DNA of 61,895 nt from the IMG/VR virus record IMGVR_UViG_3300035564_000051, positions 1-61,895 of that record; one strand, written 5' to 3'. The translations under genes were made by a program, and so were the position numbers. Position 1 is the stretch's first letter, and every line of letters starts with the position of its first letter. Positions 1-61,895 of this stretch are shown in pieces. The stretch is from a virus (Duplodnaviria > Caudoviricetes). The notes under the pieces were generated by a model. It was not told where the DNA came from. It did no database searches and worked only from the letters and a program-made list of their open reading frames with translations.

Positions 1-1
1 A

Positions 2-823
2 ACCATGCCGGGTTATACAACTCTAACATCTGGAAATGCAAAAGTAGCAAAGGCAGATTCATCAACAATGCCCGGGTATGTCACACGCTCGCAAATCCTG
101 ACAGACTCAACCAATCGAAACGCCCTCCTTGCCCTCAAGGCTCCTTTAGCCTCTCCGACCTTTACCGGAACACCCGCGGCTCCTACGGCCTCAGTAGGAA
201 CAAATACAACCCAAATAGCTACCACGGCTTTTGTACTGGCTAACGCAGGAGCCGGTGCAACCGATTCGATCAAGGTCAAAGCCTCTGATGAAACCGACAC
301 CGGAACAGCCCTGCAAAATGATGATGATTTGAAATTCGGTATTGGAGCGAATCAGACTTGGATTGGATATGCGTTTTTGGATTGTCACGCTCAAAATGGA
401 ACTGATGGTGTTGGAACAAACACTTGCGGAATTATCTTTGCGATAAATGGCCCCAGTGGAGCTACCCTTACATTCAGTCTGTCCAATCAATACATCAATG
501 ACAATTATGGTGTTTCTGTCTATAACTATTATGAAACAAGACAGACTGCACTCAATACCAACACAAATGCACCTTTCCAAAATACCACCCCTGGCATTGC
601 CGGAAACTCTGACAAAATTGTCCACGTAACTTTTCTTGTAAAAAGTAGTAGCACAACCGGAACAATACAACTGCGCTGGTATCCTATTGCGGGAATTGAC
701 TCTGATCCTGGCCCAACAACTCAGTCTGCAACCGTTCGCGCCCGAAGCTATCTCTATGCAAGGAAGGTGGGTTCAATCATGTTTCTGATAATCTTCATAC
801 CGAAGCGACGTAAGGCGAACTAA
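2..823 (+). CDS. Tail fibre protein, C-terminal part (5' partial; probably continues the ORF starting at 61299)
   Basis: Frame is open from base 2. Contains the 32-aa repeat KADSSTMPGYVTRSQILTDSTNRNALLALK also seen at the window end, the phage tail-fibre motif KAPLASPTFTGTPAAPTASVGTNTTQIATTAFV, and a beta-rich C-terminal domain. Confidence 0.8.
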   Translation, partial: TMPGYTTLTSGNAKVAKADSSTMPGYVTRSQILTDSTNRNALLALKAPLASPTFTGTPAAPTASVGTNTTQIATTAFVLANAGAGATDSIKVKASDETDTGTALQNDDDLKFGIGANQTWIGYAFLDCHAQNGTDGVGTNTCGIIFAINGPSGATLTFSLSNQYINDNYGVSVYNYYETRQTALNTNTNAPFQNTTPGIAGNSDKIVHVTFLVKSSSTTGTIQLRWYPIAGIDSDPGPTTQSATVRARSYLYARKVGSIMFLIIFIPKRRKAN

Positions 824-1128
824 TGAAGAAACTTTTCTTCCTGTTGGCGATACCGTTGCTGGCTTGCGCCCAAGGGAAGTCTGATGAAATGGCTCCTTTG
901 TCATATTGGCGAGCACTAAAATATCAGGACACACTTGCAGTCCTGCAACATCAGCGTGACAGTCTGATTGTGCTGGCAAAAACATTCAAGTCGGCAAAGT
1001 CCAAAATCACAACACAAAGTGAAATCACCTACAAGTTCTCAGATGCAATGAAGATGATTGATTATTTGGATGCAGTCCAAGCGATTGAGCAAAAGATTGC
1101 GGTGCTGAAAAATCAACTTGCACAATGA
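823..1128 (+). CDS. Small exported protein (signal peptide, possibly lipoprotein), coiled-coil
   Basis: N-terminus MKKLFFLLAIPLLACAQ; LLAC could be a lipobox, or ACA|Q an SPase I site. Start overlaps the upstream TAA. Confidence 0.65.
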   Translation: MKKLFFLLAIPLLACAQGKSDEMAPLSYWRALKYQDTLAVLQHQRDSLIVLAKTFKSAKSKITTQSEITYKFSDAMKMIDYLDAVQAIEQKIAVLKNQLAQ

Positions 1129-9787: not shown

Positions 9788-9790
9788 GAG

Positions 9791-17262: not shown

Positions 17263-17272
17263 GAGGATAGTC

Positions 17273-17644
17273 ATGCACCCAATTCTCGCTATAAAACATT
17301 TCTTTGCCGGACTGTGGAAAGTGATTGTCGCGGTGGTAAGTTTCTTCGCCGCTGCTCTGACAGAAGCAGACGGCAACGGTGGCAAGGCTTCATTTGCCCG
17401 ACTGATGGGAACCTACGTCACCATCAGGATTGTAGAGTCAGAGATTCGCGGCGGCGCGGTCTCGCCCAATCTTATGACAATCTTCTGGGTGCTGGTAGGT
17501 TTTGCAATGGTCTCGAAAGTGCTGGCTCAGATGTCGCCTGCCGTGCTTGATATTGCAAGATCGTTTCTCGTCAAGGCTGGTGTTACGGTGAAATTGCCGG
17601 AGACCACGACTACCACTACCACACAGACGGAGACAAAGACATGA
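17273..17644 (+). CDS. Holin-like membrane protein
   Basis: Two to three hydrophobic segments, poly-Thr tail, SD AGGAGG, upstream of the endolysin. Confidence 0.45.
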   Translation: MHPILAIKHFFAGLWKVIVAVVSFFAAALTEADGNGGKASFARLMGTYVTIRIVESEIRGGAVSPNLMTIFWVLVGFAMVSKVLAQMSPAVLDIARSFLVKAGVTVKLPETTTTTTTQTETKT

Positions 17645-18054
17645 TCGAGCTTCTCGCTATCCTTCTGTTCGCCATAAGCCCGTTTGTCTGGGCGTGGTTT
17701 GAACATTTCATCTTTGACCTGCGGGATCTTCACATCGGCCCGCCGGATGTTCCCATTCCCGAGGTTCAACTTGTCTGGGAGTATCACGGTCCAATGGCCT
17801 TCATCGTCTTTACGCTCTCGGCGCTTCTCTCCATAATCTTCACAACTTGGCTCTGCCTGCTCTTGGCTGGCATCTGGCTCTTTGTTGAGGATGTTGCTTA
17901 CACGGTGATATTCTACCTGTGGAAGCGGAAGAAGGGACTATCGCAAAAGGATGCTTGGGCTGCAGCCGTTGAAGCCGATACGTTCGGCAAATACATCTAC
18001 TACGCATGGACTGTCGGATTCATCTACACCGTGACGGTGCTGTTTATTCTCTAA
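17641..18054 (+). CDS. Multi-pass membrane protein
   Basis: About four hydrophobic segments; ATGA overlap. Confidence 0.6.
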   Translation: MIELLAILLFAISPFVWAWFEHFIFDLRDLHIGPPDVPIPEVQLVWEYHGPMAFIVFTLSALLSIIFTTWLCLLLAGIWLFVEDVAYTVIFYLWKRKKGLSQKDAWAAAVEADTFGKYIYYAWTVGFIYTVTVLFIL

Positions 18055-27260: not shown

Positions 27261-27562
27261 TGGTAAACGAGGTAAAAAGTCATTCAGGATCGCCTACAAG
27301 CGCGCAAAGAGACCTCTTGATACCTGAGTATAGGCGCAGGCTTCGCCTCGTGCTACGACGATATAAACGCGGAAAGTCACTTCGCTCACTATCGAAGGCT
27401 TTGGGGCTTTCTCATCCGACGGTGCGGACAATACTAGAGCATCCGAACACTTCCGTATCACTGAAGACCATGATGAAAGTTTTGAGAGCAACAAGCAAGC
27501 GCAGGATTCACCTAACCCTGAGTCTGATCGGTCATGTAACAAAAGCCCGGTGTCCGTTCTAA
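27260..27562 (+). CDS. HTH DNA-binding protein
   Basis: SLRSLSKALGLSHPTVRTIL. Confidence 0.65.
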   Translation: MVNEVKSHSGSPTSAQRDLLIPEYRRRLRLVLRRYKRGKSLRSLSKALGLSHPTVRTILEHPNTSVSLKTMMKVLRATSKRRIHLTLSLIGHVTKARCPF

Positions 27563-28641
27563 TGAAGGTCGCAATCATACTTAATCAGGTCTTCCCCTAC
27601 CGCAGTCCGGTGTTCGATCTACTGGGGTCTCACTATACGGTGATTTACAGTTGCCAGAAGGAGGGGAATAGGGGTTGGGAATCTCCCGAACTGAAGCACG
27701 ACTACATTTTCCTCAAACCCCGGATGATTCCCTATGGAGTAGAGGGATTCGCTCATGTCAATTTCGACATATTCAAAGCCTTGAGAGAAGTAGATCCCGA
27801 CGTAATCATTCTCTACGGCTTTGGCCCGACACAGCAACTAGCCTACCTTTGGGCGCGGCTTCACCGTAGAAAGATCGTCACATGGTTCGATGGATGGTCA
27901 CACACAGAGCGAAACAGAAGTAACCGGCAGCTTTGGATTCAGAGAATGTTCGTACGGCATTCTGAGGCGTGTATTGCGAGTAGCCAGAAGGGAAGTCGTT
28001 ACTTCTATTCACTCGGAGCATCAAAAGTATTTGTTGCACCAATGGCAGTTGACAATTCCAGATTCGCACCGGCAAAGAATAAACGTCCCTTCGATCTTCT
28101 CTTCGTCGGCCAGTTGATAGAACGCAAGGGGGTGCTCTTTCTTCCTGAGTTGATGAAAGAACTCCACGACAAGAAGCTAATGATTGTCGGTGACGGACCC
28201 CTGAAGGAAGAATTGCTCAAAAGGCTAATGAACATCCACGCAGACTTTCATCATGTGAGGTTCGTTCCCTGGGAAGAAATCCATTGGTATTATCAAAGGT
28301 CAAAGATACTTCTCTTTCCAACGCTGGATGATTCATGGGGGCTGGTTTGCAATGAAGCACTTGCCGCTGGATGTCCGGTCATAACCACAGACAAAGCCGG
28401 ATGTGCGGGAGAGCTGGTTCGTCACGCGGTTAATGGCGCGATTCCAGTAAGCATGGAACCCGTGTGGTTGTGGGCGCGACCAATAGATGAACTCTGCAAA
28501 CCCAAGTACCGGCGCGCCGCAATCGAATCAGTCAAAGGCTACACCCTCCAAGCTCAAGCCCAAGCGATAAGAGATGCAGTGGCTTGCGCGGCAAAAGAAA
28601 TTCTGTACAGAGAAACGAGAGATGTCTATGAAGAAAACTAG
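27562..28641 (+). CDS. GT4-family glycosyltransferase
   Basis: LFVGQLIERKG, IVGDGP, DSWGLVCNEALAAGCPVI. Confidence 0.9.
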   Translation: MKVAIILNQVFPYRSPVFDLLGSHYTVIYSCQKEGNRGWESPELKHDYIFLKPRMIPYGVEGFAHVNFDIFKALREVDPDVIILYGFGPTQQLAYLWARLHRRKIVTWFDGWSHTERNRSNRQLWIQRMFVRHSEACIASSQKGSRYFYSLGASKVFVAPMAVDNSRFAPAKNKRPFDLLFVGQLIERKGVLFLPELMKELHDKKLMIVGDGPLKEELLKRLMNIHADFHHVRFVPWEEIHWYYQRSKILLFPTLDDSWGLVCNEALAAGCPVITTDKAGCAGELVRHAVNGAIPVSMEPVWLWARPIDELCKPKYRRAAIESVKGYTLQAQAQAIRDAVACAAKEILYRETRDVYEEN

Positions 28642-28879
28642 TCGCGCAATCATTCTAACGCTCGCTTTCTTTGCCCTCCACGTTCTTGTCCGCATGATGG
28701 GAGATAAGTGGAATCCAACCGATGCCTTCATCTTCGGCTACACATGGGGTGGATGGGAATTTGAACTCTGGAAATTGGCCGGAACCCTGACGACGGTTAT
28801 TGTGTGCGTTGCGCTGGCTCTCGGCTTTGGATGGAATCTGGATGCGCTGCTCAAGAAATCGAAGATGAGTCAGAATTGA
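28628..28879 (+). CDS. Small membrane protein
   Basis: Two hydrophobic helices. Confidence 0.55.
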   Translation: MKKTSRAIILTLAFFALHVLVRMMGDKWNPTDAFIFGYTWGGWEFELWKLAGTLTTVIVCVALALGFGWNLDALLKKSKMSQN

Positions 28880-29178
28880 AACTATCGAAGGTCATAGGGT
28901 TGGTTCAGGAATCTCCGGCACTATTTCTCTTTGCACTAGCCTGCATCTGGGTTGTGTTTATCGAACTGTTCAGAAAGGGATTTCCGATGGATTACACATT
29001 CAAGGTCGAAATCATTCGTGAGGGAGAGGATAGCGAAACGATCCATCGGGCCGTTTCTGCAACCAGCTTCGATGAAGCACTCAAGAAATTGCGTAATGAA
29101 ATCAGGAAGCGCCGCCCCTTGGATAAGTACTACCCCCTGGTGAGAGTTCTCTGGTTTGAAATTAACAAAGTCATTTGA
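28876..29178 (+). CDS. Hypothetical protein (start uncertain)
   Basis: TTG start overlapping the upstream stop; an internal ATG is also possible. Confidence 0.4.
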   Translation: MKLSKVIGLVQESPALFLFALACIWVVFIELFRKGFPMDYTFKVEIIREGEDSETIHRAVSATSFDEALKKLRNEIRKRRPLDKYYPLVRVLWFEINKVI

Positions 29179-29857
29179 GGCGGAATTGAACAAAGAACTC
29201 ACATACGACAGACTGTTTGAAGTGATGAAGGCTCGCTCAAGCGACTACGACACAGAGCGTCGAGCCTATTGGCTTGTTGACCGTTTCTTGTATGGTAAGC
29301 TCTATGACAAGAAGGTGCTGGATGTCGGAGCCGGATGTGGCTATGCGACTCGGAAGTTAATAAACGACTTGGGGGATGTTACTGCGCTAGATATAAGCCC
29401 GAAGATGGTCGAACACCTTTCGCACTTTTGTTATGCTCAACAAGCAAACATCTTTGACGTGTGCGGGTATTTCGGAGCCAGTGCGTTTGATATTGTCCAT
29501 TCATCCGAGTGCATCGAGCACACCCCGAATCCCCCGGCTGCAATCCGTCAGATGTGTTGGGTGTTAAAACCCGGAGGCTATCTTGCACTCAGCACACCGA
29601 ACCTTTTGTGGTGGCCGATTGTAAAACTGGCGAGCATCTTGAAACTCCGACCCTTTGACGGCTATGAGAACTTCAGCACGTTCGCCGGTCTCAGAAAAAC
29701 TCTTGAAGATGCAGGAATGGAAGTCATAGAAGCGCGGGGTTTGCATCTGTTCCCATTTCAGATCCCGCTACACGACCTGTCAGGTTGGTGCGATATTCAC
29801 CTGCAATGCCTGAAGCACTTGATGATAAACATACTCATCCTCGCGAGGAAGAAATGA
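29156..29857 (+). CDS. Class I SAM-dependent methyltransferase (Methyltransf_11/UbiG-like)
   Basis: VLDVGAGCG, FDIVHSSECIEH, LKPGGYLALSTPN. Confidence 0.9.
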   Translation: MKLTKSFEAELNKELTYDRLFEVMKARSSDYDTERRAYWLVDRFLYGKLYDKKVLDVGAGCGYATRKLINDLGDVTALDISPKMVEHLSHFCYAQQANIFDVCGYFGASAFDIVHSSECIEHTPNPPAAIRQMCWVLKPGGYLALSTPNLLWWPIVKLASILKLRPFDGYENFSTFAGLRKTLEDAGMEVIEARGLHLFPFQIPLHDLSGWCDIHLQCLKHLMINILILARKK

Positions 29858-30168
29858 AAACCGGAAACATCTGGAAAGATCGAGGTAACTACAAGATTTA
29901 TTTCGACCGATGGAGAAACTACCTGGGAAGCGCCCAGTTCCTCTTGATCCTCATAATGTTCATCATTCAAACCAAGATGAGTCTATGGTGGATCGTTGGT
30001 GGATTTCTTCTGTCAGTAGTCTGGATGTGGGTTGACGTTCGCTACATCCTTTCGGCTGAGTACGAATCTCAACAGCGCAAGAACTGGGAACTCACATCGA
30101 GGATGAAGAAGATCGACCACATAGAAACGATGTTGGAGAAACTAACAGGAGAAAAGAATGCAGGGTGA
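29854..30168 (+). CDS. Membrane protein
   Basis: Two TM segments plus a helical tail. Confidence 0.55.
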   Translation: MKTGNIWKDRGNYKIYFDRWRNYLGSAQFLLILIMFIIQTKMSLWWIVGGFLLSVVWMWVDVRYILSAEYESQQRKNWELTSRMKKIDHIETMLEKLTGEKNAG

Positions 30169-30715
30169 AGGAATGAGATGTAGCGTTGATGGTTGTGATG
30201 TAGCCTACCACTCTCGCGGTCTATGCCATAATCACTACCGAATGTTTTTGAAATATGGCAGGTATTTCATTAGACACGCGGTGCGCGGCCCCAACCACGG
30301 ACTTTCCCGGACTCCTGAGTACGTAAGCTGGACATGCATGAAGGGCCGATGCTATAATCGCGCCATAAAGAGCTTCAAGCATTACGGCGGTCGGGGGATA
30401 AAAGTTTGTGATCGGTGGCTGCAATCCTTCGAGAACTTTCTCGCAGACATGGGTGAGCGCCCTTCACTGAGGCACACGATTGAGCGGATAAACAATGACG
30501 GAAACTACGAGCCGAATAACTGCAAGTGGATAATAGCGGAGCATCAGGCATTGAACAGGCGAAGCACAAAGATAACCCGAAGTCAGATAGCGGACGTTGT
30601 TGACCTTATTCGATCAAAGGACTATACGCACCTAGAGATAGCGAAAATCTACGGCGTATCGGAAAGCAATATTGCCTATTACCACAAGAAATATGCGAAG
30701 GGAGCAGCGGAATGA
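30158..30715 (+). CDS. HNH homing endonuclease
   Basis: CSVDGC...LCHNHY, YGGRGIKVCDRW, HTIERINNDGNYEPNNCKW, C-terminal HTH. Confidence 0.88.
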   Translation: MQGEGMRCSVDGCDVAYHSRGLCHNHYRMFLKYGRYFIRHAVRGPNHGLSRTPEYVSWTCMKGRCYNRAIKSFKHYGGRGIKVCDRWLQSFENFLADMGERPSLRHTIERINNDGNYEPNNCKWIIAEHQALNRRSTKITRSQIADVVDLIRSKDYTHLEIAKIYGVSESNIAYYHKKYAKGAAE

Positions 30716-31338
30716 GCCGGTACTACAGAGGTCTATTCTTCAAGAGGGGATATAGTGTGCGAATCTCGCTTTTGTTCGAGTGCTCGCTCCAACCTTTGTG
30801 TTCCTACTGTTGTTTGACGGTTCCGACGGGTCAACGGGCGAAATCTCGACGCGCAACACTTGAGGAATGGAAAACCTTCATCGAGAACTTCCCCCTCAAG
30901 ATCAAAGAACTCCATCTCTGCGGTGGGGAACCTTCTTTGCTATCGTGGATGCCACGACTCGCCAACTGGCTTCTCGACAAAGGGCATCACGTAACGATCT
31001 ACACCAATCTTCACAATGTAGAAACGCTTTGCCGAATCCGTCCGTCGAAAAGGTTGATGATTATTTCCACCTATCATCATCAGGATGATGCCCTCAAGTA
31101 CACGCGTTCCTACGAGCGATTGACTGCGGCGGGTTACGAGGTAAGGGTGGGGGAAATGAACGACGGTTCTCCGGGCTGGAAGAAGGTCATGCCCTATTCC
31201 AAACTCAAGACGCTCTATCCCGATCAAAAATCTCTCCACGACATTTCCGACAGGGAGCGACAACTCATCGTTGCGCCCGATCTGACGATCTACTCGGGTT
31301 GCTGGGAGCAATACATGGACAAGGGGAGGCCACAATGA
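30712..31338 (+). CDS. Short radical SAM protein (CX5CX2C variant)
   Basis: CSLQPLCSYC, LCGGEP, IYTNL. Confidence 0.75.
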   Translation: MSRYYRGLFFKRGYSVRISLLFECSLQPLCSYCCLTVPTGQRAKSRRATLEEWKTFIENFPLKIKELHLCGGEPSLLSWMPRLANWLLDKGHHVTIYTNLHNVETLCRIRPSKRLMIISTYHHQDDALKYTRSYERLTAAGYEVRVGEMNDGSPGWKKVMPYSKLKTLYPDQKSLHDISDRERQLIVAPDLTIYSGCWEQYMDKGRPQ

Positions 31339-31958
31339 CCCGCTTCCTCGGTATTGAACTGTACGAGAAAACCAAGTTGCTCAAGCGCGGGGAATCTGTG
31401 GTCCTGATGATAACCTTCGATTGCAACCTGGACTGTTCTTTCTGTCTGATTCACCTTCCCGGCGGCAAGAGGGCATACATGGAAAGTGAAGGAATCGGCT
31501 ATTGGAAACACGCCGTGGAACTGCTTCCGGTCAAGGTCAGGGAGTTCTACATATCAGGCGGAGAATTGACCCTGCCGCAATTTTCTTGGCTGCCAGAATT
31601 TCTCACATGGCTCTTAGATAAAGGCTATCACGTTACACTCACAACCAATCTCTATGACATCGCGCCGATACTGAAGATTCCGAAAAGGCACAACTTCCAG
31701 ATCAGTTCGACCTTCCACCCCGAGGCTGACCTGTGGGATTTTGATAACAAGTTTTGGAAGCTGAGAAACGCTGGCTACCGGATTGAGGCAAAGGAACTCG
31801 GCAAGAAGAAACTCCTGACCTATTCAACCCTGGAGCCGATCAGAAGTAAGGAGATGCTCTACTTTGACAAACGGATGCTTCACCTATGCAGTAAAAACAG
31901 AATCTACATCGGGGAATACGAGATGTCGATTGCATGTACACCGAAGGAGGCCAAATGA
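31335..31958 (+). CDS. Short radical SAM protein
   Basis: CNLDCSFC, ISGGE, LTTNL; paralogous to the upstream gene (WLLDKG.HVT..TNL in both). Confidence 0.82.
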   Translation: MTRFLGIELYEKTKLLKRGESVVLMITFDCNLDCSFCLIHLPGGKRAYMESEGIGYWKHAVELLPVKVREFYISGGELTLPQFSWLPEFLTWLLDKGYHVTLTTNLYDIAPILKIPKRHNFQISSTFHPEADLWDFDNKFWKLRNAGYRIEAKELGKKKLLTYSTLEPIRSKEMLYFDKRMLHLCSKNRIYIGEYEMSIACTPKEAK

Positions 31959-32608
31959 GCTTCTTCGCCCGGTTCAAAATACTTCGTCTCTTGAAAAGAT
32001 TCATCTGGGTGCATCTGAACATCTGGGCCTACCCCGATACGATCGTACGAGATGCGATCCTAAAGCATGTCAAGCCCGGAACTCGGTGTATTGATGTGGG
32101 TGCTCACAGGGGGAGAATGACAGACCTGATGCTCAAATGCTGTGGCACTTCGGGAATGGTCAACGCCTTTGAACCCCTGCCGGATTTTTGCCATGCCCTA
32201 GAGGACAAATACCGTCGGACGAGGAATGTGTTTGTGTTTAACACCGCGCTTGGTGATATACCACCTAGAAGGATGCCCTCAGTAGCTTGTTTTGCTCGAA
32301 CCGAAGATCCGCTGATGTCATCATTTCATCCCGACTCGAAGTGCAAGGTTATCGAGTTCCTCACGGTCTCTGTCCGATCTCTCGACTCATACCATTTTGA
32401 AGGAATCGGCTTTATCAAGATCGACGTAGAAGGATGGGAACCGGAAGTCCTGAAGGGTGCGGAAGAGACCATCAACAAGTATCACCCCGTGATAATCGCG
32501 GAATGTTTGCCCGGTTCAAAGAATGCAAGTCCGATGATAGAGTTTTTTGAATCACACGGATATGGAACAATCCACTATCCATACGAAATCCTTGCGGTGA
32601 AGATATGA
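31955..32608 (+). CDS. FkbM-family methyltransferase
   Basis: IDVGAHRG, AFEP, FIKIDVEGWEPEVLKGA. Confidence 0.9.
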   Translation: MSFFARFKILRLLKRFIWVHLNIWAYPDTIVRDAILKHVKPGTRCIDVGAHRGRMTDLMLKCCGTSGMVNAFEPLPDFCHALEDKYRRTRNVFVFNTALGDIPPRRMPSVACFARTEDPLMSSFHPDSKCKVIEFLTVSVRSLDSYHFEGIGFIKIDVEGWEPEVLKGAEETINKYHPVIIAECLPGSKNASPMIEFFESHGYGTIHYPYEILAVKI

Positions 32609-33459
32609 TGCTGAGAGAGCGTATCCACGACAGGCTTCTTCACTCGTACAGCAATCTCGTCATGCCAAGCGGCCAGCCGGGGGGAAGGGTTCTGATTCCC
32701 TGCAATGTGGGCTACGGAGACTTGGTATTTCTGCTTCCGGTCCTGCGGGCATTAGATGGTAAAGACACCACGCTGGTTCTTGATGATACCGACAAAGCAG
32801 ACTTCTTGCGGCAGGTGGGAATCCAGAACGCATGGATATTCCCCTGGGAGCGGCTTCATGCCACAGAGTATGATACCATCATCTGCACCCATGCCCAACA
32901 GTGGACTCCGATCATCTACCAGGTGATCGACAAAAGGATTCCATGCCGGATCGGGCATATCTGGAGGGAAAAGTACTCATGGGCTTGGACTCACAAGGTT
33001 CCGTTCGTGGACGGTTGGCATGAGAGAACCAATAACGCATCGCTCTTGGAACCATTTAAGTTGAAACCGATACACAGGAAGATCGAGATAGAACCCGAGC
33101 GAGGATTCGACGTTCTCATTGCCCCAAACACAACGAGTCCCGAGAAGGATTGGGATGGTTACGATGAACTTGCAAGGAAAATATTTGCGACACCGAACAC
33201 ATTCTCGTTCACAACGATATACGAGAAACTTCCGATGAATAAGCTCTTACGGGCCATCGCCGGTGCTCGCCTTATCATTGGCAACGACTCAGGGCTCCCC
33301 AAGATTGCCGATGCAATGGGAATACCTGCGATACAGATATTCAAAGCATGTGGCTGGCAACCATCGCGTTCAGGGCTCTCTCATGGAATTGACCTTGTAG
33401 AACCAACGGTAGATGAAGTTTTCACTCGCGCACAAATAATCTTACAGGAGAAACAATGA
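32605..33459 (+). CDS. GT9-family (heptosyltransferase-like) glycosyltransferase
   Basis: GYGDLVFLLPVLRAL, EKDW, IIGNDSGLPKIADAMGIPAIQIF. Confidence 0.85.
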   Translation: MMLRERIHDRLLHSYSNLVMPSGQPGGRVLIPCNVGYGDLVFLLPVLRALDGKDTTLVLDDTDKADFLRQVGIQNAWIFPWERLHATEYDTIICTHAQQWTPIIYQVIDKRIPCRIGHIWREKYSWAWTHKVPFVDGWHERTNNASLLEPFKLKPIHRKIEIEPERGFDVLIAPNTTSPEKDWDGYDELARKIFATPNTFSFTTIYEKLPMNKLLRAIAGARLIIGNDSGLPKIADAMGIPAIQIFKACGWQPSRSGLSHGIDLVEPTVDEVFTRAQIILQEKQ

Positions 33460-36974: not shown

Positions 36975-37498
36975 GCGACCCTGAAATTCTCACCGAGGAA
37001 AAGCTGGACGAAATCTTAGCCGATCATCCACACCCCGAATCAGTAGCGCGAGACTATGTAGTCCACGAACTGATATTCAACATTCGGGAGGCGAGGAAAG
37101 AATTAGCGAAGGTAAGGGAAGAACACGCTGTTGTCATTCAGAATATCAACGACAACTGGCAAGGGCTTTACAATGCGAGAATTGAACAGGCAAACGCCCA
37201 ACTCTCTCAGGCAAAGGCAGAGGTGGAGAGACTTCAATCAATTACCCTTCACGATACAGGTCGTGTAGTAGATGCAGAAGCGAAGGTTGTTGCGCTTGAG
37301 GTCGATGTTGCCACCCTTCGCCGTGACTTGTCAGAGGCGTATGAGGCAATTAGGAAATCGCAAGCTGTTCTTGCGGGATGGATTGTTCCCGATAGCATTG
37401 TGACTGACGCTGAAGCTCTGGACAAACTACTCGGAATCCTCGATGACAAGAAACTTGTAGCGTTTCTCACCGCACAGAAAGCGAGGGATGGGGAATGA
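36971..37498 (+). CDS. Hypothetical coiled-coil protein, ends LTAQKARDGE
   Basis: First gene of the repeat-joined array. Confidence 0.6.
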   Translation: MSDPEILTEEKLDEILADHPHPESVARDYVVHELIFNIREARKELAKVREEHAVVIQNINDNWQGLYNARIEQANAQLSQAKAEVERLQSITLHDTGRVVDAEAKVVALEVDVATLRRDLSEAYEAIRKSQAVLAGWIVPDSIVTDAEALDKLLGILDDKKLVAFLTAQKARDGE

Positions 37499-37659
37499 CA
37501 AGCCGAATAGTGGCACTGATTGCACTTATTCTGATGATTCATGGATGGTTGATAGAAAGCACTCCGATGATGGTTGATGGTGTGGTTGCTACATTCATAT
37601 CAATCTTCATTCGTGGCATTGAAGAAACTCGGAAAAAGAAAGCGAGGGATGGGAAATGA
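37495..37659 (+). CDS. Small membrane protein (54 aa; not in ORF track), ends KARDGK
   Basis: MTSRIVALIALILMIHGWLIES...; lies exactly between two repeat copies. Confidence 0.6.
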   Translation: MTSRIVALIALILMIHGWLIESTPMMVDGVVATFISIFIRGIEETRKKKARDGK

Positions 37660-37847
37660 CACCGAAAGAACGAAAACAAGTAAGGTCGCTCATCAAGGTG
37701 TATGATGGTTACATCGAATTGCTCAACGCTGAACTTGAGGAAATTATTGTGCTTGCGACTTTGCACGGGTGGAAAAGTCACCGATACGAGGACGGCTTGA
37801 AAATGCGGAATCGAATCGCAGAACTGAAAAGGAGCATTTCACAATGA
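37656..37847 (+). CDS. Hypothetical protein
   Basis: Starts inside the repeat (ATGA). Confidence 0.6.
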   Translation: MTPKERKQVRSLIKVYDGYIELLNAELEEIIVLATLHGWKSHRYEDGLKMRNRIAELKRSISQ

Positions 37848-38398
37848 CCGCGAAAGAACTGAGAGAACAAATAACTGACGAGGTTCAGCGGGAGTTTTCA
37901 ATCAATGCCGAAGGGTGGAAGTTGGAAGGAGTCTATACTCGCACCGTCGGAAACAAAACTGTTCAAGCCGTTCCATCGGCACACGATACGAAACGGTTGC
38001 GTAATGCGGTGATTGAAGCCCGTCTATCTGCTCGCCAGCTTGAGTCCCTTCTGTCCGACTCACAGAAAGAGGTGGCGAAGGCAGAGAAGGGATGGACAGA
38101 GGAACGCAACCACGCCGAAGATTCAGAGTTGCAACTATTCGGCATCTCTCGAAAACTCAACATTGAGGGTAGCATTAAGAACTGGCAGACTTCAATCTAC
38201 AAGGCAATCGCTGACCTTCAGAAACAGTTGTCAGAGGCGTATGAGGCGATAAGGGAAGATTGGCCTATTTGGATAGGTCAAACACCATTGGCTTATTCGT
38301 GCTCCAGATGCAGGGCGTTTGGGGAGACCAAAGAAAACTTTCCTCACAAGCCCACCTGCATCGTTCTCACCGCACAGAAAGCGAGGGATGGGAAATGA
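37844..38398 (+). CDS. Hypothetical protein, ends LTAQKARDGK
   Basis: SD AAGGAG; starts MTAKELREQ. Confidence 0.6.
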   Translation: MTAKELREQITDEVQREFSINAEGWKLEGVYTRTVGNKTVQAVPSAHDTKRLRNAVIEARLSARQLESLLSDSQKEVAKAEKGWTEERNHAEDSELQLFGISRKLNIEGSIKNWQTSIYKAIADLQKQLSEAYEAIREDWPIWIGQTPLAYSCSRCRAFGETKENFPHKPTCIVLTAQKARDGK

Positions 38399-38679
38399 AA
38401 CCATTGATTATGCCAATTCAGCGAACAAGGGAACAGAAAGAGGCCGGCTGTCCGCAATTTATCCCTTTTGCAAACATCGACACATATGAAATTCGCAAAC
38501 AAGCCCTTGCTAATCACGACCAAACATTGGAGAGGCTGGCTGAACGTGTAGGAATGAGTCCACAAGAGATGTATGCGATGGCTCACGGGATTCGTGGTAG
38601 GGATACTGAAAAGATTCTGATGGCAACGGCAATTCAATGGTTGATTCTCACCGCACAGAAAGCGAGGGATGGGGAATGA
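38395..38679 (+). CDS. Hypothetical protein, ends LTAQKARDGE
   Basis: Starts and ends in repeat copies; QALANHDQTLERLAERVGMS. Confidence 0.6.
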   Translation: MKPLIMPIQRTREQKEAGCPQFIPFANIDTYEIRKQALANHDQTLERLAERVGMSPQEMYAMAHGIRGRDTEKILMATAIQWLILTAQKARDGE

Positions 38680-38701
38680 CACCGAAAGAACTGAGAGAAC
38701 A

Positions 38702-51671: not shown

Positions 51672-52244
51672 ATGAAACACATTATGAAACTCACAGCTCT
51701 CCTTGTCGTGCTTGCCTTGTTTGCGACCCCTGTGTTGATGGGTCAGGCGCAGTACAGGGTAGGCTACAAGATTATGACGGCAAAGGATGGGTGGACCTAC
51801 TACCGCTTCAGCGGGACGTTCATCTCGGCTACCGATACATTCTACTGCCCGGTGGCATCGCCCTTGCCAATCGGAATCAATGACACGATCAAGTTCGTTG
51901 TCAACCTTCAGACCGCGGCCTACTCTGCCACGCAGGACTCCATCAAGGTCTCGCTGGATTACCAGTGGTCGAGCTCTGACTTCTTGACTGCATCAGGTCA
52001 AACCGAAGCGGCTGTTGGCACGAGAGCATCACTCTTGTACGACTCGACTGCACAGGCCAATACTCTCTATAAGCTAAAGACAGCGGTTGTCGGCCATGAT
52101 GTTCTCAATGGTGGCTCTGCTCAACCCTTCAGCAGATTTAGGGTCCGGGGGGTGGCCGCTGCCACCGGCGGAGTTGCCAACCGAATTGGGGTTAAGTGGA
52201 TTCTCGATGTCATAGTCCCGAAGAAGTTGCCAGTGGTCCAGTAG
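51672..52244 (+). CDS. Signal-peptide-bearing beta-rich protein, capsid-decoration position
   Basis: MKHIMKLTALLVVLALFATPVLMGQAQ; D-S/T motifs DTF, DTI, DSI, DST. Confidence 0.7.
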   Translation: MKHIMKLTALLVVLALFATPVLMGQAQYRVGYKIMTAKDGWTYYRFSGTFISATDTFYCPVASPLPIGINDTIKFVVNLQTAAYSATQDSIKVSLDYQWSSSDFLTASGQTEAAVGTRASLLYDSTAQANTLYKLKTAVVGHDVLNGGSAQPFSRFRVRGVAAATGGVANRIGVKWILDVIVPKKLPVVQ

Positions 52245-53251: not shown

Positions 53252-53824
53252 ATGAAAAAGATTCTCTGTATCTCAATCCTGCTTCTGGTCATCTCGACCA
53301 TAGCCTTCTCTCAGGTCTATTGGAACCGCGTCGAGTTCCGGCGAGTCCCAAACCTGACCGCCTATACCATCGGTGATGTTGTCGGTCCAGACACGACCTC
53401 GGGAGCCTCCAATCTTTTCGCTCTTACAGGTCTCTCGCCGTCAGGTGGAGGCTATATCACAGGAATCAGACTGACAGCCGACACAGCGGTTGTCGCAACC
53501 GCAAGGTTCCGAATCTACTGGTACGCCGACACCGTGGGAAATGCCCGTCCACTGGACAACGCCGCATTTGTCCGAAGCATGAAAGAGGATAGTCTGATCT
53601 TCGCCTATACCGACCTCAATCTGCTCTCAATAGCTGGCACGGGCTCGGGCACTACGACCGCAGCGATTGATACAACCTTGAGTACGCCGATTCCTGTTCG
53701 CACGGTCAAGTTGACGACAGCTAAAATGTCTCAGACCTTCTTTGCCCGTATCGTTGCTATTGCTGCATACACACCGGCATTCAAAGGTAGGTTTCGGCTC
53801 GAAGTGTTTGTCAAACCAAACTAG
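53252..53824 (+). CDS. Signal-peptide-bearing beta-rich protein
   Basis: MKKILCISILLLVISTIAFS|Q; 5 of 8 Asp lie in D-(S/T)-(T/A/V/L). Confidence 0.72.
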   Translation: MKKILCISILLLVISTIAFSQVYWNRVEFRRVPNLTAYTIGDVVGPDTTSGASNLFALTGLSPSGGGYITGIRLTADTAVVATARFRIYWYADTVGNARPLDNAAFVRSMKEDSLIFAYTDLNLLSIAGTGSGTTTAAIDTTLSTPIPVRTVKLTTAKMSQTFFARIVAIAAYTPAFKGRFRLEVFVKPN

Positions 53825-58600: not shown

Positions 58601-58975
58601 GCCACAACGACCGCTGATAACCAGGTAGTCCAAATAAAAGAGATTCAACCGCGCTATGATCTAATTCCAACCGGAGTCTCTACACCAGCCTTTGCAAGTG
58701 AAGGCACTGCCGCAGCCATAGATCAGCGTCCAATGGCACTGGCCGATATAAGATCAGGCAAATACAACCTGACTGCCGGAGTGCTCACGACGGTTCCGTA
58801 CTCATATCCGTTCTCAGTTGCAGTAGGAACCGACTACCAACTCAAAGCCGATGTGTACAACAATGCTGGCGAGTGGATCATGTCCGCCGAAGCATCAAAT
58901 CAAACCCGAAATGGATTCGACATCACAAGCCCCGAGGATGGGTATGTTCGCTATATCGCCGCGTCAAATCAGTAA
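55682..58975 (+). CDS. Tail nozzle / tubular protein B-like (beta-propeller) with inserted domains
   Basis: 1097 aa; DGLCSRRSIVGFEDVIYWAGYNGIYSY propeller pattern; podovirus position. Confidence 0.65.
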   Translation: MPSPLHNAFLGHKPDVANPPFNSAKAGQNYSIHRHRDRENKIAGWIEQSDGYAKKFSALPANDLAIKKIANISYQDIYNLWIPDHGGQNVTVVVATYTKTGYELATLTGTAWAVAGGSLTKVTGTGTKFLTETAPGSNILLDSTQKVVLSVTSDTELYVTVAFGGAASGTSLAGSAVINRFGIFIRPYWNGSTWIDEWFETTEMMIFEIDSLGTGDGSAFLNSSGWVVDGLGFWSGSFAAGWTHSALGGAGSTDPLTQTTAAVNATYYDISWTVTGRTNGSFTIAFGGNTISGLTATGTQRIKSSSTGNLVITPTSNFDGKIVFSIITEGNVKKIYLDDITSSKYHFPTIDSGATVFKTDYFKNWTIVDRDFHGGDNYELVAASGYDGSQYYLGLIHPNNEFYSAWTAGDKLLVYRSLLELTSTGTEKQLPSSIDSFIYGLLSEARLTTGNDTTDVVLSLASKTTAFTTISTHTSDPYVKTIDEVIAGPGVLDIWKYAAVISFEPTPIPDAAGLPAGTYYLKHSIVMDDGSETALYDSPSEVGGSPADWSGTNFLTLTEASNIKIYAHRSWGTLPARGRFLRCYVSDDNVYFYKMKDFDLRSSTLFDAAAMRGISLLGGQHYFAVGYAGYLLTDLDWSAATGDSGIEATAQIGRKIDDTGVIQFKAATVAGRICYAIGVRKDATVSPNTIFASLQTGDGAPARDVFGLVANNMIDLEYGDGDELAGIYSKGDVVLAWKRQRLMSVREGSDANGKVVYLADTITQADGLCSRRSIVGFEDVIYWAGYNGIYSYSSQGVLTLNRDWLEEWKAVDVAYKETAVASFDRTNRQYRIAYNGLERLLDIDTGEWTPGVPTDQPAVFAANQRLGTVDFLSGSLIQTLGSGTRHDGVNFSMEYFNNDFLAHQLDPKGRATQNWDVLLYDVRVAYNSSVALTLTLYRDGIAQSPVAGAAGNGSVTIKAGKSFRCKKFGLKIIATTTADNQVVQIKEIQPRYDLIPTGVSTPAFASEGTAAAIDQRPMALADIRSGKYNLTAGVLTTVPYSYPFSVAVGTDYQLKADVYNNAGEWIMSAEASNQTRNGFDITSPEDGYVRYIAASNQ

Positions 58976-60038
58976 GGTTCTCATACTCTCGATTTTTCTG
59001 CCGCTGATGGTACTGGCTCAGAGATCAGTCACCATTCGCGTTGATACTTTGCGTCCATACCTGAACGGAAGTATCACATTCGTCCCGCCCTTGACTGGAG
59101 GCTACTGGTCCCGCACAGGTGGAAAGCTCCAACCCCTGTATTCCAGCGATACACTCTGGATGTCGTTCGCAAAACTCGATTCAATCAAGGTTAGAATTGC
59201 CTACCTCGATTCACTCTGGCTTGTGAGCACCAACGGAACGAACAAAGTTCTTCTCCAGTACACGGGAACGAACAACGGGTCTGTGATTATTCGGGACAGG
59301 GGAACCCCGGACTTCAAAGACACGATGATGACCTCAAGCAAGCTGCCCGCGTTCTTGAAGGGTCTCTTAAGTGGTAACTGGGCAGACTGGGCAAGTGGAG
59401 GTGGAGGCTATGGAAGCTATCAGGCATGGGGAACGGCAGGATTCGATACAACCAAGTTGAGAAACCCCTCGAACAATACAGTAGTCAGTATTGTCAATTC
59501 CACTTCCACATCCGATACAACGATCAACATTCTTGCGCTCGGTGGAGGCGCAAGCAATATCGGAGTAGTTGGAGTCATGGCCGACGAAACCCGAACCGAC
59601 ACAGCTCTTGTTGCCGACACCTATCTCATAGCGACGATGGCAGGAACAACAAGCCATTCATACGCGTACGGGGGAGTGTACGCGGGATATATCGACCTGT
59701 TTGTAGAAAACCCGTACACGCCGACAGGGATCGGTATTGGTTTCACCTTGCCCGACCCCGCGTACACCGTGATGAACGTGTATGCAGACTACTTCTATAC
59801 GATGGGCGACTCCGCCGTTTATCGCACCACCCCGATCACGACTGTCGTTAGTGATGCGAAAACGAACCTAACATGGACGGACGACTCACACTACTATCGC
59901 TATGTCCGATTGAATTGGTTCCTCGACAATCGCTACGGTTACTCCGGCCAACTCAAATTCCTTTGGGCTGCGCCGCCCAGTGGCACAACAACTAAAGTCC
60001 TTGCGGCAACAACCCTCGTAGGATACCGCCTCCAATGA
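58944..60038 (+). CDS. Signal-peptide-bearing fibre/spike-like protein
   Basis: GAGG + ATG at 58944; MFAISPRQISKVLILSIFLPLMVLA|Q; nine D-(S/T)-(L/I/M/T/A) motifs; C-terminal domain similar to 2..823. Confidence 0.68.
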   Translation: MFAISPRQISKVLILSIFLPLMVLAQRSVTIRVDTLRPYLNGSITFVPPLTGGYWSRTGGKLQPLYSSDTLWMSFAKLDSIKVRIAYLDSLWLVSTNGTNKVLLQYTGTNNGSVIIRDRGTPDFKDTMMTSSKLPAFLKGLLSGNWADWASGGGGYGSYQAWGTAGFDTTKLRNPSNNTVVSIVNSTSTSDTTINILALGGGASNIGVVGVMADETRTDTALVADTYLIATMAGTTSHSYAYGGVYAGYIDLFVENPYTPTGIGIGFTLPDPAYTVMNVYADYFYTMGDSAVYRTTPITTVVSDAKTNLTWTDDSHYYRYVRLNWFLDNRYGYSGQLKFLWAAPPSGTTTKVLAATTLVGYRLQ

Positions 60039-60838
60039 AAAAACTACTTTTCATATTACTCGTAGCGATCCCACTTCAGGCTCAAGAGTTTGCCCTGAGG
60101 ATGGGAAAGGACGTAGAAACAAAAACCGCCGCTCCAATAGTCGCGGACACTTTCGACTCTGGCGTTCTTCCAGAAAATTCGACTTGGGTTGTTCAGTACG
60201 AACTTATTTTCAGACTGTGGGAGGGCAAAGGTGAGTTTTGGTGGAACCGGAACTTTGGCCCCCCTATATGGCAAAATTGGGATGATTGCCCCATTGATGG
60301 CCCCGGTGGAACTCGCTACGACTCAGTGTACAATCTCTACGGGGGTGAATGGTTTGAACGGGTTGATGTTGCGTTTCAATTTCCAGAAGGGTCGACGCTC
60401 AAGGGTCAATTCAACTATTTGTCCCATGATGAAATTTTCGACACGACGGTTGCCGATTGGGTACCCGGTGACTACCAATGGCAATGGTTGTGGATTGGTG
60501 GTGGCGACTGCTACTGGGTTTTCGTTCCCGGTTACGCAACCACGTACAGGAAGGTCAACCCCTGGCCGTACTTTGAGGAAAACAAGAAGCTGGTCGGACT
60601 AACAAACTCCGTGGGCTATCAAGACATCGTGAACGGTCGAAGTTACGAGTGCGACTTCTTTCATTCGTACCGCGGTCTTGACACTAACTATGTAAGATTG
60701 AAAATGAGTTTCATTTTAAGCGTCGGCGGTACAGCGGGACACCTCTACTTTCTTTGGTCGCCGATAAAGAATGGCGGAGAAGCCGTTTGGGTATCTCTCA
60801 AACGCGGTTCAACTCTTTGGATGAAGAGGATAAGCTAG
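60035..60838 (+). CDS. Signal-peptide-bearing Trp-rich fibre-tip-like protein
   Basis: MKKLLFILLVAIPLQA|Q; C-terminal AGHLYFLW...KRGSTLWMKRI. Confidence 0.68.
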   Translation: MKKLLFILLVAIPLQAQEFALRMGKDVETKTAAPIVADTFDSGVLPENSTWVVQYELIFRLWEGKGEFWWNRNFGPPIWQNWDDCPIDGPGGTRYDSVYNLYGGEWFERVDVAFQFPEGSTLKGQFNYLSHDEIFDTTVADWVPGDYQWQWLWIGGGDCYWVFVPGYATTYRKVNPWPYFEENKKLVGLTNSVGYQDIVNGRSYECDFFHSYRGLDTNYVRLKMSFILSVGGTAGHLYFLWSPIKNGGEAVWVSLKRGSTLWMKRIS

Positions 60839-61302
60839 TGCTTAATCGTCTCAAAAAATTTGAATTTGAACTAACCCGAATGCTCGCCTATGGGCGCGAG
60901 AACATGGATCTTCGGCCCGTACTTACGAGCCTGGTCAAAATGCTCGGCGAGGAAGTAGACTATATCGAGAAGAATGTTACATCACAGGTCACTCCTGCCC
61001 CGGCATCAGGCGGAACGGTGATTATCAATGGAACCACCGTAGTCACTTCCGTAGGCGCTGCTCCTGTAGGAGTAATTGCGATCATCAATCAGGCTGTTGT
61101 CTCTGGAGCAAATACAATCACCTTTGCCTCACCGCTCATCAGCGCGGTCTATGGTGGCTTCTTGGTGCTGTCAGATTCAGAAGGCACATTGATCGACAGC
61201 GCGGAACTAAGAATGCGCTCTACCGGCATGACAGCCAATCAGTTCATCTACACCGCGCCATCAGCCGGACACCTGTACGGATTTGCGGTAGTCGCCACAT
61301 GA
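60838..61302 (+). CDS. Putative tail accessory protein
   Basis: GTG overlaps the upstream TAG; C-terminal beta domain resembles the end of the nozzle protein. No signal peptide. Confidence 0.5.
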   Translation: MLNRLKKFEFELTRMLAYGRENMDLRPVLTSLVKMLGEEVDYIEKNVTSQVTPAPASGGTVIINGTTVVTSVGAAPVGVIAIINQAVVSGANTITFASPLISAVYGGFLVLSDSEGTLIDSAELRMRSTGMTANQFIYTAPSAGHLYGFAVVAT

Positions 61303-61895
61303 GAAAGCTATTCTACATACTGATGATGCTTCCCTTGATTGCTCTCTCGCAGTCAACCCAGAAGCAGGCATTTCAAGAAGTGAAGGTTGACACCTTAAGA
61401 CCCAATCACTACGGACCCTCTTGGGGAATTGTCATTGCATGGCACGATACTGTCTCTGTGAAGATATTCAAGGACTCCATTCTCTTCGGGAAGGTCAGGA
61501 TTGGCTCAAGCGGTTCTTTGATCGACTCTGCAATCGTCCAAGCTGATACACTTCTGTTCTGGTCAGGGGGAAGCAAATACAAAGCTTTCAAGAACGGCAC
61601 TGGAAGCGGCTCGTCATTTGTTGCCAAAGCCGATAGCTCTCTGATGCCGGGGTACGTGACAAGAACGCAAATCGCAACTGATTCTACCAACAGAAACACT
61701 CTACTTGCACTTAAGGTTGCAAAGTCAGACTCGTCAGCTATGCCGGGTTATGTCACACGCTCGCAAATCCTAACAGACTCAACCAATCGAAACGCTTTAT
61801 TGGCCTTGAAAGTAGCGAAGTCTGATAGCAGCGCAATGCCCGGATATGCGACGCGTACAATGATTCAAACTGATTCCACGAACAGAAATGTTCTG
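61299..61895 (+). CDS. Signal-peptide-bearing tail fibre, N-terminal part (3' partial; not in ORF track)
   Basis: ATGA overlap; MRKLFYILMMLPLIALS|QST...; open for 199 codons to the window end, running into the 32-aa repeats. Confidence 0.8.
   Translation, partial: MRKLFYILMMLPLIALSQSTQKQAFQEVKVDTLRPNHYGPSWGIVIAWHDTVSVKIFKDSILFGKVRIGSSGSLIDSAIVQADTLLFWSGGSKYKAFKNGTGSGSSFVAKADSSLMPGYVTRTQIATDSTNRNTLLALKVAKSDSSAMPGYVTRSQILTDSTNRNALLALKVAKSDSSAMPGYATRTMIQTDSTNRNVL
61620..61895 (+). repeat. Imperfect 96-bp tandem repeat (about 3 units; further units at 1-140)
   Basis: The MPGY ATG recurs at 61644, 61740 and 61836; unit VAK(A/S)DSSxMPGYxTRxxIxTDSTNRNxLLALK. Confidence 0.93.

Follow-up and report, generated by a model that had tools for sequence, protein, structure and literature searches.

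A tail-fibre gene with a predicted export signal and candidate O-glycosylation sites, probably split across the ends of a podovirus-like phage genome record

Introduction

Tail fibres that combine a characteristic sequence motif with a tip resembling tumour necrosis factor (TNF) and C1q are an established kind of phage protein, represented by PHROGs 454, 2631 and 7032, by the cyanophage A4 chain 9k09_A and by the short-fibre CBD of A-1(L) (8ke9_A). Here we describe such a fibre gene in the IMG/VR virus record IMGVR_UViG_3300035564_000051, whose 61,895 bases were analysed as a whole and are called the window below. The gene is most likely present as two pieces, an open reading frame (ORF) that runs off the end of the window (61299..61895) and another that is already open at its start (2..823). 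It resembles the described fibres in its motif, its jelly-roll tip, a shaft built of repeats and a position after the adaptor and large tail genes. By motif, tip fold and module position the gene conforms, as a fibre, to this known kind. What it adds to the motif-bearing fibres is a predicted signal peptide of the Sec/signal peptidase I (SPI) type, an N-terminal domain (N-domain) and a 32-aa repeat unit without family match, and a density of D-(S/T) sequons of ~20-25 per 1000 aa, where 69 other fibre-motif ORFs have a median of 3.1.

Signal peptides followed by Gln at position +1, together with many D-(S/T)-(A/I/L/V/M/T/S) sites, are also a property of Bacteroidota O-glycosylation substrates, for example the heavily glycosylated S-layer proteins of Tannerella (PMC8550257; PMC8729774; PMC12871550). 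The glycosylation motif is given as (D)(S/T)(A/I/L/V/M/T) in PMC8550257, and glycoproteomes have widened its third position to S/G/F/C (PMC8550257; PMC8729774). General O-glycosylation is described as confined to non-cytoplasmic proteins and as reaching near-full occupancy, and engineered motifs become glycosylated (PMC12871550). The preference for Gln at +1, known as the Q-rule, reaches a mean Q-value of 71% among Bacteroidetes SPI substrates; Ignavibacterium likewise has a high Q-value, unlike most Chlorobi, Spirochaetes and Chlamydiae, where it is low (PMC5837995). In contrast to the Bacteroidota substrates, the window fibre is encoded by a virus, lies in a tail module, carries a fibre motif and tip, and is known from sequence alone, with a host phylum that we infer.

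Phage products predicted to use host Sec/SPI and to expose Gln have been described in Porphyromonas gingivalis phages, in an account that covers five genes of temperate phages, assigns them no function and discusses them as modifiers of the host envelope (PMC10367356). The window differs in having six such genes within a structural module, one of them a recognisable fibre. Relative to the literature that we found, this block of six Sec/SPI, Q-rule, sequon-rich proteins in a tail module is what appears to be new. Glycosylated virions are known from mycobacteriophages, whose capsid and tail-tube proteins are reportedly modified by glycosyltransferases that the phages themselves encode and that work in the cytoplasm (Freeman et al. 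2023). The idea of glycans on the surface proteins of a tailed-phage virion is the same, whereas the agent proposed here belongs to the host and would act in the periplasm, on fibres exported through Sec.

The reading that we put forward, with a probability of roughly 45%, is that the two pieces belong to a single tail fibre that is exported, O-glycosylated by the host and docked to the tail, and that the window was opened within its repeat. All window genes given below lie on the + strand, on which our survey of window ORFs places every plausible gene.

Probable continuity of the fibre gene across the window ends

The ORF at 61299..61895 encodes 199 aa (the N piece), starts with an ATG that overlaps the stop of the preceding gene (ATGA) and is open at its 3' end. 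Its last part (61617..61895) consists of shaft repeats, in which a single F is followed by units U1 (61620-61715), U2 (61716-61811) and U3 (61812-61895), the last of which stops at the contig end with 28 of its 32 codons present. The 32-aa unit has the consensus VAKxDSSxMPGYVTRxQIxTDSTNRNxLLALK. At the other end, the window starts in an open frame of 273 aa (2..823, frame 2; the 3' piece), with base 1 as the third base of a Ser codon, and the repeat continues through 1..139 in that frame as a short degenerate unit, TMPGYTTLTSGNAK (1-43), and a full unit (44-139).

A preliminary description of this DNA, made from its letters alone, had proposed that the ends share one repeat in frame, with 68-122 nearly identical to 61740-61794. 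The two stretches indeed agree at 52 of 55 bases. Tandem Repeats Finder reports a 96-nt period at 61644-61822, and a repeat search groups 41-138 with 61617-61714 and 61713-61810. DNA identity from unit to unit is 59-69%, and 82% between U2 and the 44-139 unit. Differing codons are mostly synonymous (19 synonymous and 5 non-synonymous of 32 between U1 and U2), and every unit retains one DSS and one DST, so that the two D-S sites per unit kept despite synonymous divergence were correctly seen. The shared repeat thus stands, with three units at the end and one full and one degenerate unit at the start, but a literal join does not: since ORF 61299 ends on a complete codon at 61895 and the start ORF is in frame 2, joining base 61895 to base 1 is out of frame by one base. 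Counted from the sequence, the repeat registers of the two ends can be reconciled only if 32 nt, or 32 nt and a multiple of 96, are missing, which gives a fibre gene of at least 483 codons. An overlap between the window ends was also considered and ruled out, as the residues that follow MPGY differ (ATRTMIQTDSTNRNVL at one end and TTLTSGNAK at the other).

A search of 1.84 billion representatives returned only 27 proteins at E<=0.001, all of them unnamed or 'hypothetical' and several located on phage-sized contigs of 37-65 kb. Removal of the window's own P0014 and of an unrelated repeat protein (P0016) leaves the set of 25 homologues used here. Three of these (P0001, P0005 and P0007) hold N-domain, shaft and tip within one ORF. 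Moreover, P0019 (1018 aa) combines a signal peptide, repeats, the motif with an identical LLALKAPLASPTFTG junction, and the tip domain in a single protein, and its residues 795-995 align to residues 14-227 of the start ORF with 42% identity (E 4e-32).

A profile search of metagenome contigs with the N-domain gave five loci (L085-L089), in all of which the conserved 182-aa gene without signal peptide that precedes the fibre in the window (60754..61302) serves as an upstream anchor (tblastn identity 52-66%). The last genes of the window encode the 1097- and 182-aa proteins, and its first genes the 188-, 375- and 1397-aa proteins. In L087, the 1097-aa homologue (2294-5533) is followed by a signal-peptide protein, the 182-aa homologue (7537-8001), a fibre of 503 aa (8001-9512) that opens with the N-domain of the window fibre, a small hydrophobic ORF, the 188-aa homologue (9987-10403) and then the homologues of the 375- and 1397-aa proteins. 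L088 has the 182-aa homologue, a fibre of 432 aa, a second signal-peptide protein of 258 aa and the 188-aa homologue. Since both loci bring the homologues of the window's last genes together with those of its first genes, the window ends are neighbours in the relatives, and gene order, judged from L087 and L088, is continuous across the ends.

Several observations nevertheless speak against a single gene on a closed map. IMG/VR classes the record as linear, in the sense that no terminal repeat was detected. The terminal copies are 83% alike over 98 nt (88% over 83 aligned nt) and form no identical direct repeat. Exact 30-33-mers of both window ends found no match among other viral contigs, nor did a 30-mer of the 3' end among metagenome contigs. 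In the closest relative, L003/L085, a 145-aa ORF of its own encodes the N-domain, and the repeat belongs to the next gene, which has a signal peptide of its own; L088 has two signal-peptide genes within the end-to-start interval. The gap could accordingly conceal a gene boundary, and the ends might represent two adjacent genes that share the repeat, with a tip, a stop and a new signal peptide lost between them, or the record might be a linear fragment. Also in keeping with this alternative, exact matches between the end units, read from the aligned units, are only ~23 nt long and point to unresolved sequence or population variants, and the contig of L086 and L087 carries two fibre alleles. However, the N piece enters three repeat units without a stop, the registers of the ends fit with only 32 nt missing, N-domain, shaft and tip are joined in three homologues and repeat, motif and tip in P0019, and CheckV estimates the completeness of the window, which is the whole virus record, at 100%. 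Two genes or a linear fragment thus seem quite improbable, and ORFs 61299-61895 and 2-823 are most likely halves of one fibre gene. The circular, one-gene map of the preliminary description is accordingly upheld as far as the synteny of relatives, P0019 and the CheckV estimate go, but no junction contig and no identical terminal repeat accompany it. With exact matches as short as ~23 nt, simple repeat collapse does not account for the break, which probably arose from unresolved repeat copies or population variants.

Two further observations concern the related contigs. L086 and L087 lie on the same 67,329-bp metagenome contig, in which the tail module is present twice, 43,080 bp apart. The duplicated 1080-, 673- and 154-aa ORFs have identical translations in both copies. 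The fibre allele that follows is not the same, being P0001 (641 aa) in one copy and P0005 (503 aa) in the other, and over about the first 95 residues the two alleles differ by one substitution. The arrangement suggests an assembly that ran past a single genome length by way of two population variants of the fibre. In L003, an ORF 3' of the fibre genes (5200-6546) has a twin-arginine-type leader, MTTRRQFIQRLGLVALGAPMMA, and reaches the contig end.

A predicted signal peptide with glutamine at +1

The fibre begins with MRKLFYILMMLPLIALS (61299..61349), which has a basic n-region, a hydrophobic core and A/S at -3/-1 and is followed by QST, with cleavage predicted before Gln18 (61350-61352). Residues 2-17 are helical in an AlphaFold2 (AF2) model. 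The signal peptide suspected in the preliminary description is supported by comparison with homologues. We used a simple heuristic (K/R, a 9-residue hydrophobic window, a small residue at -1 and Q at +1), and 21 of 25 homologues pass it; those that fail are P0021, which looks 5'-truncated, P0022, P0023 and P0024. Q18 is the only invariant column in a 19-sequence alignment. Among the six sequences aligned over the N-domain, the hydrophobic core is variable, in contrast to the conserved Q18, S19 and mature domain, and this is the way in which cleaved signal peptides evolve. The N-terminus of ORF 61299 is therefore likely to be a functional export signal of the Sec/SPI type with Gln at +1, as far as sequence can tell. 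By the Q-rule, such a signal points to a host in Bacteroidetes or in one of a few relatives such as Ignavibacterium.

The same heuristic is passed by 6 of the 73 window ORFs (51672, 53252, 58938, 60035, 61299 and 823), which all have Q at +1 and all lie in the structural region, from 51.6 kb to 1.1 kb across the ends. Two of the predicted signal-peptide proteins, each of 190 aa, flank the adaptor gene: one is encoded between the capsid and adaptor genes (51672..52244; 3 core sequons, D[ST][AILVMT], with 0.7 expected) and the other 3' of the adaptor gene (53252..53824; 5 with 0.8 expected). A third, at 58938..60038, has 366 aa when counted from the second Met, and its leader ends in LPLMVLA before QRS and then RVDTLRP; it holds 10 core sequons with 2.0 expected. 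A fourth (60035..60838, 267 aa) has the leader MKKLLFILLVAIPLQA before QEF. Directly 3' of the fibre, 823..1128 encodes a small protein of 101 aa with the leader MKKLFFLLAIPLLACA before QGK, in which LLAC resembles a lipobox. The C-terminal half of this protein looks helical. It may be a lipoprotein that partners with the fibre, or may have an exclusion or spanin-like role.

Export of a tail fibre would be a departure from what is established, in that tailed-phage virions are assembled in the cytoplasm, and our literature search for exported or signal-peptide tail fibres found no report. The signal-peptide call, moreover, relies on our own heuristic. The N-terminus might instead be a helix for trimerisation or for anchoring to the tail, or might tether the protein transiently to a membrane; the fibre would then be assembled in the cytoplasm, as is the rule, and its D-S/T-hydrophobic pattern would act as a helix cap or turn rather than as a sequon. 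The structure models lend this alternative some credit. The monomer models of the N and 3' pieces have an overall pLDDT of 54.5 and 59.7, respectively, and below 50 in the repeat region; in both, the DST stretch is helical, with a helix that starts right after the Asp in one and runs through it in the other, so the D-S/T motif may partly be structural. In addition, P0022 has DS-type repeats without a signal peptide, and no type IX secretion system (T9SS) or other sorting domain was found. On the other hand, a variable hydrophobic core with small residues at -3/-1 and an invariant Gln at +1 marks SPI substrates and is not what a structural helix would show. The enrichment set out below is specific to Asp, S/T and a hydrophobic third residue, is common to mutually dissimilar signal-bearing proteins, and is not seen in tail proteins that have no signal peptide, for instance the 1097-aa protein (4 core sequons, with 5.6 expected). 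Accordingly, we consider it unlikely that the N-terminus serves a purpose other than export.

Two other ideas on how the fibre might be placed were rejected. The fibre ends in a C-terminal extension, SIMFLIIFIPKRRKAN, with a hydrophobic run and a basic tail (773..823, including the stop codon at 821-823), which is absent from its homologues. The C-terminal IMFLIIFIPKRRKAN was ruled out as a membrane anchor, as its hydrophobic run of 8 residues is too short and the homologues are without it. Homologue endings of the form ...LVKQ or ...LVKK prompted the idea of a type IX secretion cargo, but no C-terminal sorting domain was matched: the Pfam families CTD/Por_Secre_tail have no match in 21 homologues (E<=0.1) or in the window proteins (E<=0.01), and NCBIfam, run on 21 proteins at E<=0.1, gave only one hit, a spurious PhrK match below threshold that falls on the ORF 53252 signal peptide. 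The tip, moreover, is a TNF-like domain of 170 aa.

Signal peptides may extend beyond this group of fibres. Four of 73 other fibre-motif ORFs with a complete 5' end on viral contigs (in L009, L013, L014 and L028) have a signal-like peptide followed by Gln, with MKKILFLLLCTVSMYG before Q as an example, and fibres with signal peptides may thus be a wider, overlooked minority. Their sequons are at 0-3.1 per 1000 aa, with no excess, and in this respect they count against reading the D-(S/T) pattern solely as selection for sequons.

Enrichment of D-(S/T) sequons in signal-bearing proteins

Both the DST and the DSS of the shaft unit fit the (extended) O-glycosylation motif of Bacteroidota. All 11 Asp residues of the 199-aa N piece are followed by S/T, giving 11 extended motifs. 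To place these numbers, D[ST][AILVMT] was counted in each protein and compared with composition-preserving shuffles (300 for the window sets, 200 for homologues and controls). The 7 signal-bearing ORF pieces contain 32 such sequons with 6.6 expected (19.8 per 1000 aa), whereas the other 67 window ORFs contain 39 with 41.3 expected (2.2 per 1000 aa). The enrichment in signal-bearing proteins is about 4.5-5.4-fold, and it does not hinge on the fibre gene, without which 22 sequons are still found and 4.3 expected (Poisson P 1.3e-9). In the 25 homologues, 296 sequons are observed and 58.9 expected. The same partition is seen within related contigs, where observed and expected counts are 28/5.8 for signal-bearing and 6/10.3 for other ORFs in L087, 16/2.8 and 2/3.5 in L088, and 23/4.3 and 4/5.1 in L003.

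The excess is restricted to the sequon itself. In the signal-bearing set of the window, observed and expected counts are 0/1.5 for E[ST]h, 8/5.7 for N[ST]h, 8/6.8 for the reversed motif, 1/2.4 for D[ST][KRED] and 3/6.1 for D[AG]h. For 23 homologues, the corresponding ratios are 0.89, 0.95, 0.97, 0.42 (D[ST] plus a charged residue) and 0.36, next to 5.43 for the sequon. BLASTP of ORF 51672 against 53252, and of 58938 against 60035, shows no similarity (E>=0.14), and since the signal-bearing proteins of these pairs are dissimilar, the excess is not a matter of simple paralogy. Selection for sequons in exported proteins would produce such a pattern, although P0022, the helical DST stretches, the four fibre-motif ORFs without excess and the host results given below count against this as its only reading. 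The specific enrichment makes the regularly glycosylated stalk suggested in the preliminary description considerably more plausible, as a hypothesis. That the fibre is actually glycosylated has, in our estimate, an even chance. One part of the preliminary description is overstated: the shaft was suggested to be possibly mucin-like, but it has two sites per 32 residues and no Ser/Thr/Pro-rich tract. Its other suggestion, a shaft of variable length, agrees in part with the homologues, in which the number of units differs.

Glycans, if present, could in principle be added in the cytoplasm by glycosyltransferases of the phage, as in mycobacteriophage virions. A cluster of the window at 27550-33459 would supply candidates, as it includes a GT4 glycosyltransferase, three S-adenosylmethionine (SAM) methyltransferases (one of FkbM type), two radical-SAM-like ORFs and a GT9-like protein. 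However, sequon enrichment follows the signal peptide and not virion membership, and the motif exactly matches that of the host system, which makes cytoplasmic glycosylation by the phage highly improbable. The targets of the cluster could be host glycans, DNA or the phage's own exported proteins.

Fibre motif, tip and N-terminal domain

Directly after the repeats, the 3' piece contains the tail-fibre motif APLASPTFTGTPAAPTASVGTNTTQIATTAFV (SPTFTG...TQIATTAFV; 140..235). The fibre motif named in the preliminary description is confirmed by family searches: 10 PHROG families match at or around residues 36-84 of the start ORF (the matched stretches span 18-115), 7 of the 10 are annotated as tail fiber protein, and the best match has an E-value of 1.6e-12. 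Weak sequence matches to solved tail-fibre chains were also obtained (9k09_A, E 0.0025; 9cuy_g, E 0.0078); the whole 3' piece gave no match to PDB sequences at E<=0.01.

The motif is followed by a C-terminal beta-sandwich tip, a TNF/C1q-like jelly roll at residues 88-256 (263..769). In the AF2 model of the 3' piece, made from an 11-row alignment, this block reaches a pLDDT of 73-91. Foldseek searches of the PDB with the tip returned 11 matches at E<=0.001, to the TNF-like lectins PLTL and BC2L-C-Nt, RANKL and 4-1BBL, C1q, and cyanophage fibre chains. The same search of BFVD returned 210 matches at E<=0.001 (best 8.3e-12), of which those with names are mostly phage tail fibre proteins. A search for proteins related to the tip domain but longer gave none at E<=0.001. 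The tip is likely to be the receptor-binding part of the fibre. Domains of the TNF/C1q-like kind are usually trimers.

The N-terminal, beta-rich domain (residues 18-106; 61350..61616) was delimited from the 6-sequence alignment and an AF2 model, in which strands occupy residues 24-97 at a pLDDT of about 70. The whole domain is conserved in P0001, P0005, P0007, P0009 and P0010, with the invariant positions Q18, S19, Q26, E27, D31, T32, R34, N36-P40, W42, H49, D50, D59 and S60 and a conserved core that reads ...DT.R.NHYGP.W...HD...DS. The N piece, which comprises this domain and the 32-aa unit, matches no Pfam, PHROG or NCBIfam family. A fold search with the N-domain gave a best Z of 6.8, inside the noise band, and structural look-alikes of the N piece in the ESM Atlas were all below 0.85 or had a TM below 0.4. 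The stretch VDTLRP occurs soon after the cleavage site in both ORF 61299 and ORF 58938. Together with the conservation of the N-domain, it suggests a shared docking module and attachment to a common site, and we propose that the N-domain is such a module.

The fibre gene lies 3' of genes for the portal, the SU10 capsid protein, the SU10 adaptor and the 1097-aa tail protein, in an order that is kept in relatives. This position bears on whether the signal-bearing proteins are virion parts at all. They could be exported, and probably glycosylated, without joining the particle, and in the periplasm, the outer membrane or the medium might mask or bind receptors and so exclude superinfecting phages, protect progeny from debris or act as decoys. 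This reading would also account for the signal peptides and sequons. The virion would then use a second fibre-like set at 7413-13290, which has neither signal peptides nor a sequon excess and could contain the real virion fibres: it begins, at 7413-8238, with an ORF of 124 aa with PHROG tail-fibre N-terminal matches and one of 177 aa with an Mtd_N match (E 1.2e-14), and large ORFs of 511 and 1078 aa follow. ORF 823-1128, which looks lipoprotein-like, is reminiscent of the arrangement in phage T5, where Llp sits next to the receptor-binding gene. A role at the host envelope has likewise been proposed for the Q-rule proteins of P. gingivalis phages (PMC10367356). Nevertheless, the six signal-bearing genes stand among those for capsid, adaptor and tail and are syntenic in relatives, the VDTLRP stretch looks like part of a shared docking module, and a tip fold combined with this motif is typical of virion fibres. 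For these reasons we hold a non-virion function to be rather unlikely, and continue with an exported fibre that docks to the tail, although its presence on the virion must be called tentative, with chances somewhat below even.

Genome context and candidate host

Pfam matches in the window include TerS, a P22-like portal (E 1.8e-11), an SU10-type major capsid protein, the SU10 adaptor and Mtd_N; a large-terminase match was under the family cut-off. A tblastn search of 50,697 GenBank phage records with the portal and the fibre N piece gave no matches. The window phage is a tailed, podovirus-like virus of a lineage so far undescribed. Its GC content is 50.3%, and no tRNA genes were found in the whole window.

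Two results sit uneasily with a Bacteroidota host. Motifs resembling Shine-Dalgarno (SD) sequences occur 5' of 32 of the 73 window ORFs, where about 8 would be expected at random positions, and SD-like sites at this frequency are atypical for classical Bacteroidia. Furthermore, a search for a host or prophage with the repeat profile, across 185,579 species genomes, produced 23 pattern matches, none of which was confirmed.

Other parts of the genome deserve brief mention. A C39-like cysteine peptidase ORF (E 1.7e-7) at 16364-18054 is followed by three small ORFs, two of them with strongly hydrophobic segments, and this region may be a lysis cassette. At 37464-38681, a 37-nt element, TTCTCACCGCACAGAAAGCGAGGGATGGGGAATGACA, occurs in four copies of 68-100% identity, each of which ends at the start codon of a small ORF; these small ORFs also have internal repeats in common (repeat families D2, D3, D5 and D11), which makes the region a small array of paralogous genes whose leader is conserved. 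The proline/lysine-rich ORF of 1397 aa contains a perfect tandem duplication of 27 nt, at 4924-4977. Finally, a 779-aa ORF at 13528-15867 has a LAGLIDADG-like domain at residues 511-565, which may be a homing endonuclease or an intein inserted within a larger protein.

Implications

If our reading is right, the window would be a complete podovirus-type genome that the assembly opened within the 96-nt tandem repeat of a single fibre gene, leaving a gap of 32 nt + 96n. The protein would consist, in order, of a signal peptide (residues 1-17), the beta-rich N-domain, at least 4.5 shaft units, the SPTFTG...TQIATTAFV motif and the TNF/C1q-like tip. Late in the infection of a host belonging to Bacteroidota in the GTDB sense, the fibre would be exported through Sec and cut before Gln18, which would then cyclise to pyroglutamate. 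The general periplasmic O-glycosylation system of the host would modify D-(S/T)-x sites, two per shaft unit and five in the N-domain, and the fibre would fold as a trimer outside the cytoplasm. Once lysis mixes periplasm and cytoplasm, the N-domain would dock the fibre to the tail, and the lectin-like tip would bind a surface glycan. Of these elements, the anatomy of the gene, the conservation of its signal peptide, the specific sequon excess, the synteny over the ends and the tip fold are observed; continuity of the gene, the steps from export and cleavage to glycosylation and trimer formation, the host phylum and attachment to the virion are deduced. A bolder version, which we regard as somewhat unlikely, is that this phage lineage matures part of its tail outside the cytoplasm, with six Sec-exported, pyroglutamate-capped and densely O-glycosylated proteins of the structural module, a classical-looking tail fibre among them, joining the cytoplasmically built particle at lysis, and so acquires a glycan-coated, protease-resistant set of fibres. 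The glycosyltransferase and methyltransferase cluster of the phage might retailor the glycan added by the host.

The split of the gene over the contig ends is an ordinary assembly artefact, with the consequence for annotation that a gene of at least 483 codons is now recorded as two fragments, the 3' piece being P0014. What is unusual is the occurrence of a predicted Sec/SPI-type signal peptide, the phylum-specific Gln +1 rule and an approximately five-fold sequon excess in a tail-fibre module, a combination that is repeated in three related contigs. If the proteins concerned are not virion parts, they would form a large, conserved set of secreted proteins resembling receptor-binding proteins. 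If they are virion parts, a tailed phage would be using a compartmentalised route of assembly and its fibres would be the first phage fibres glycosylated in the host periplasm, which would matter for host range, for recognition by the immune system and for the engineering of phages in Bacteroidota.

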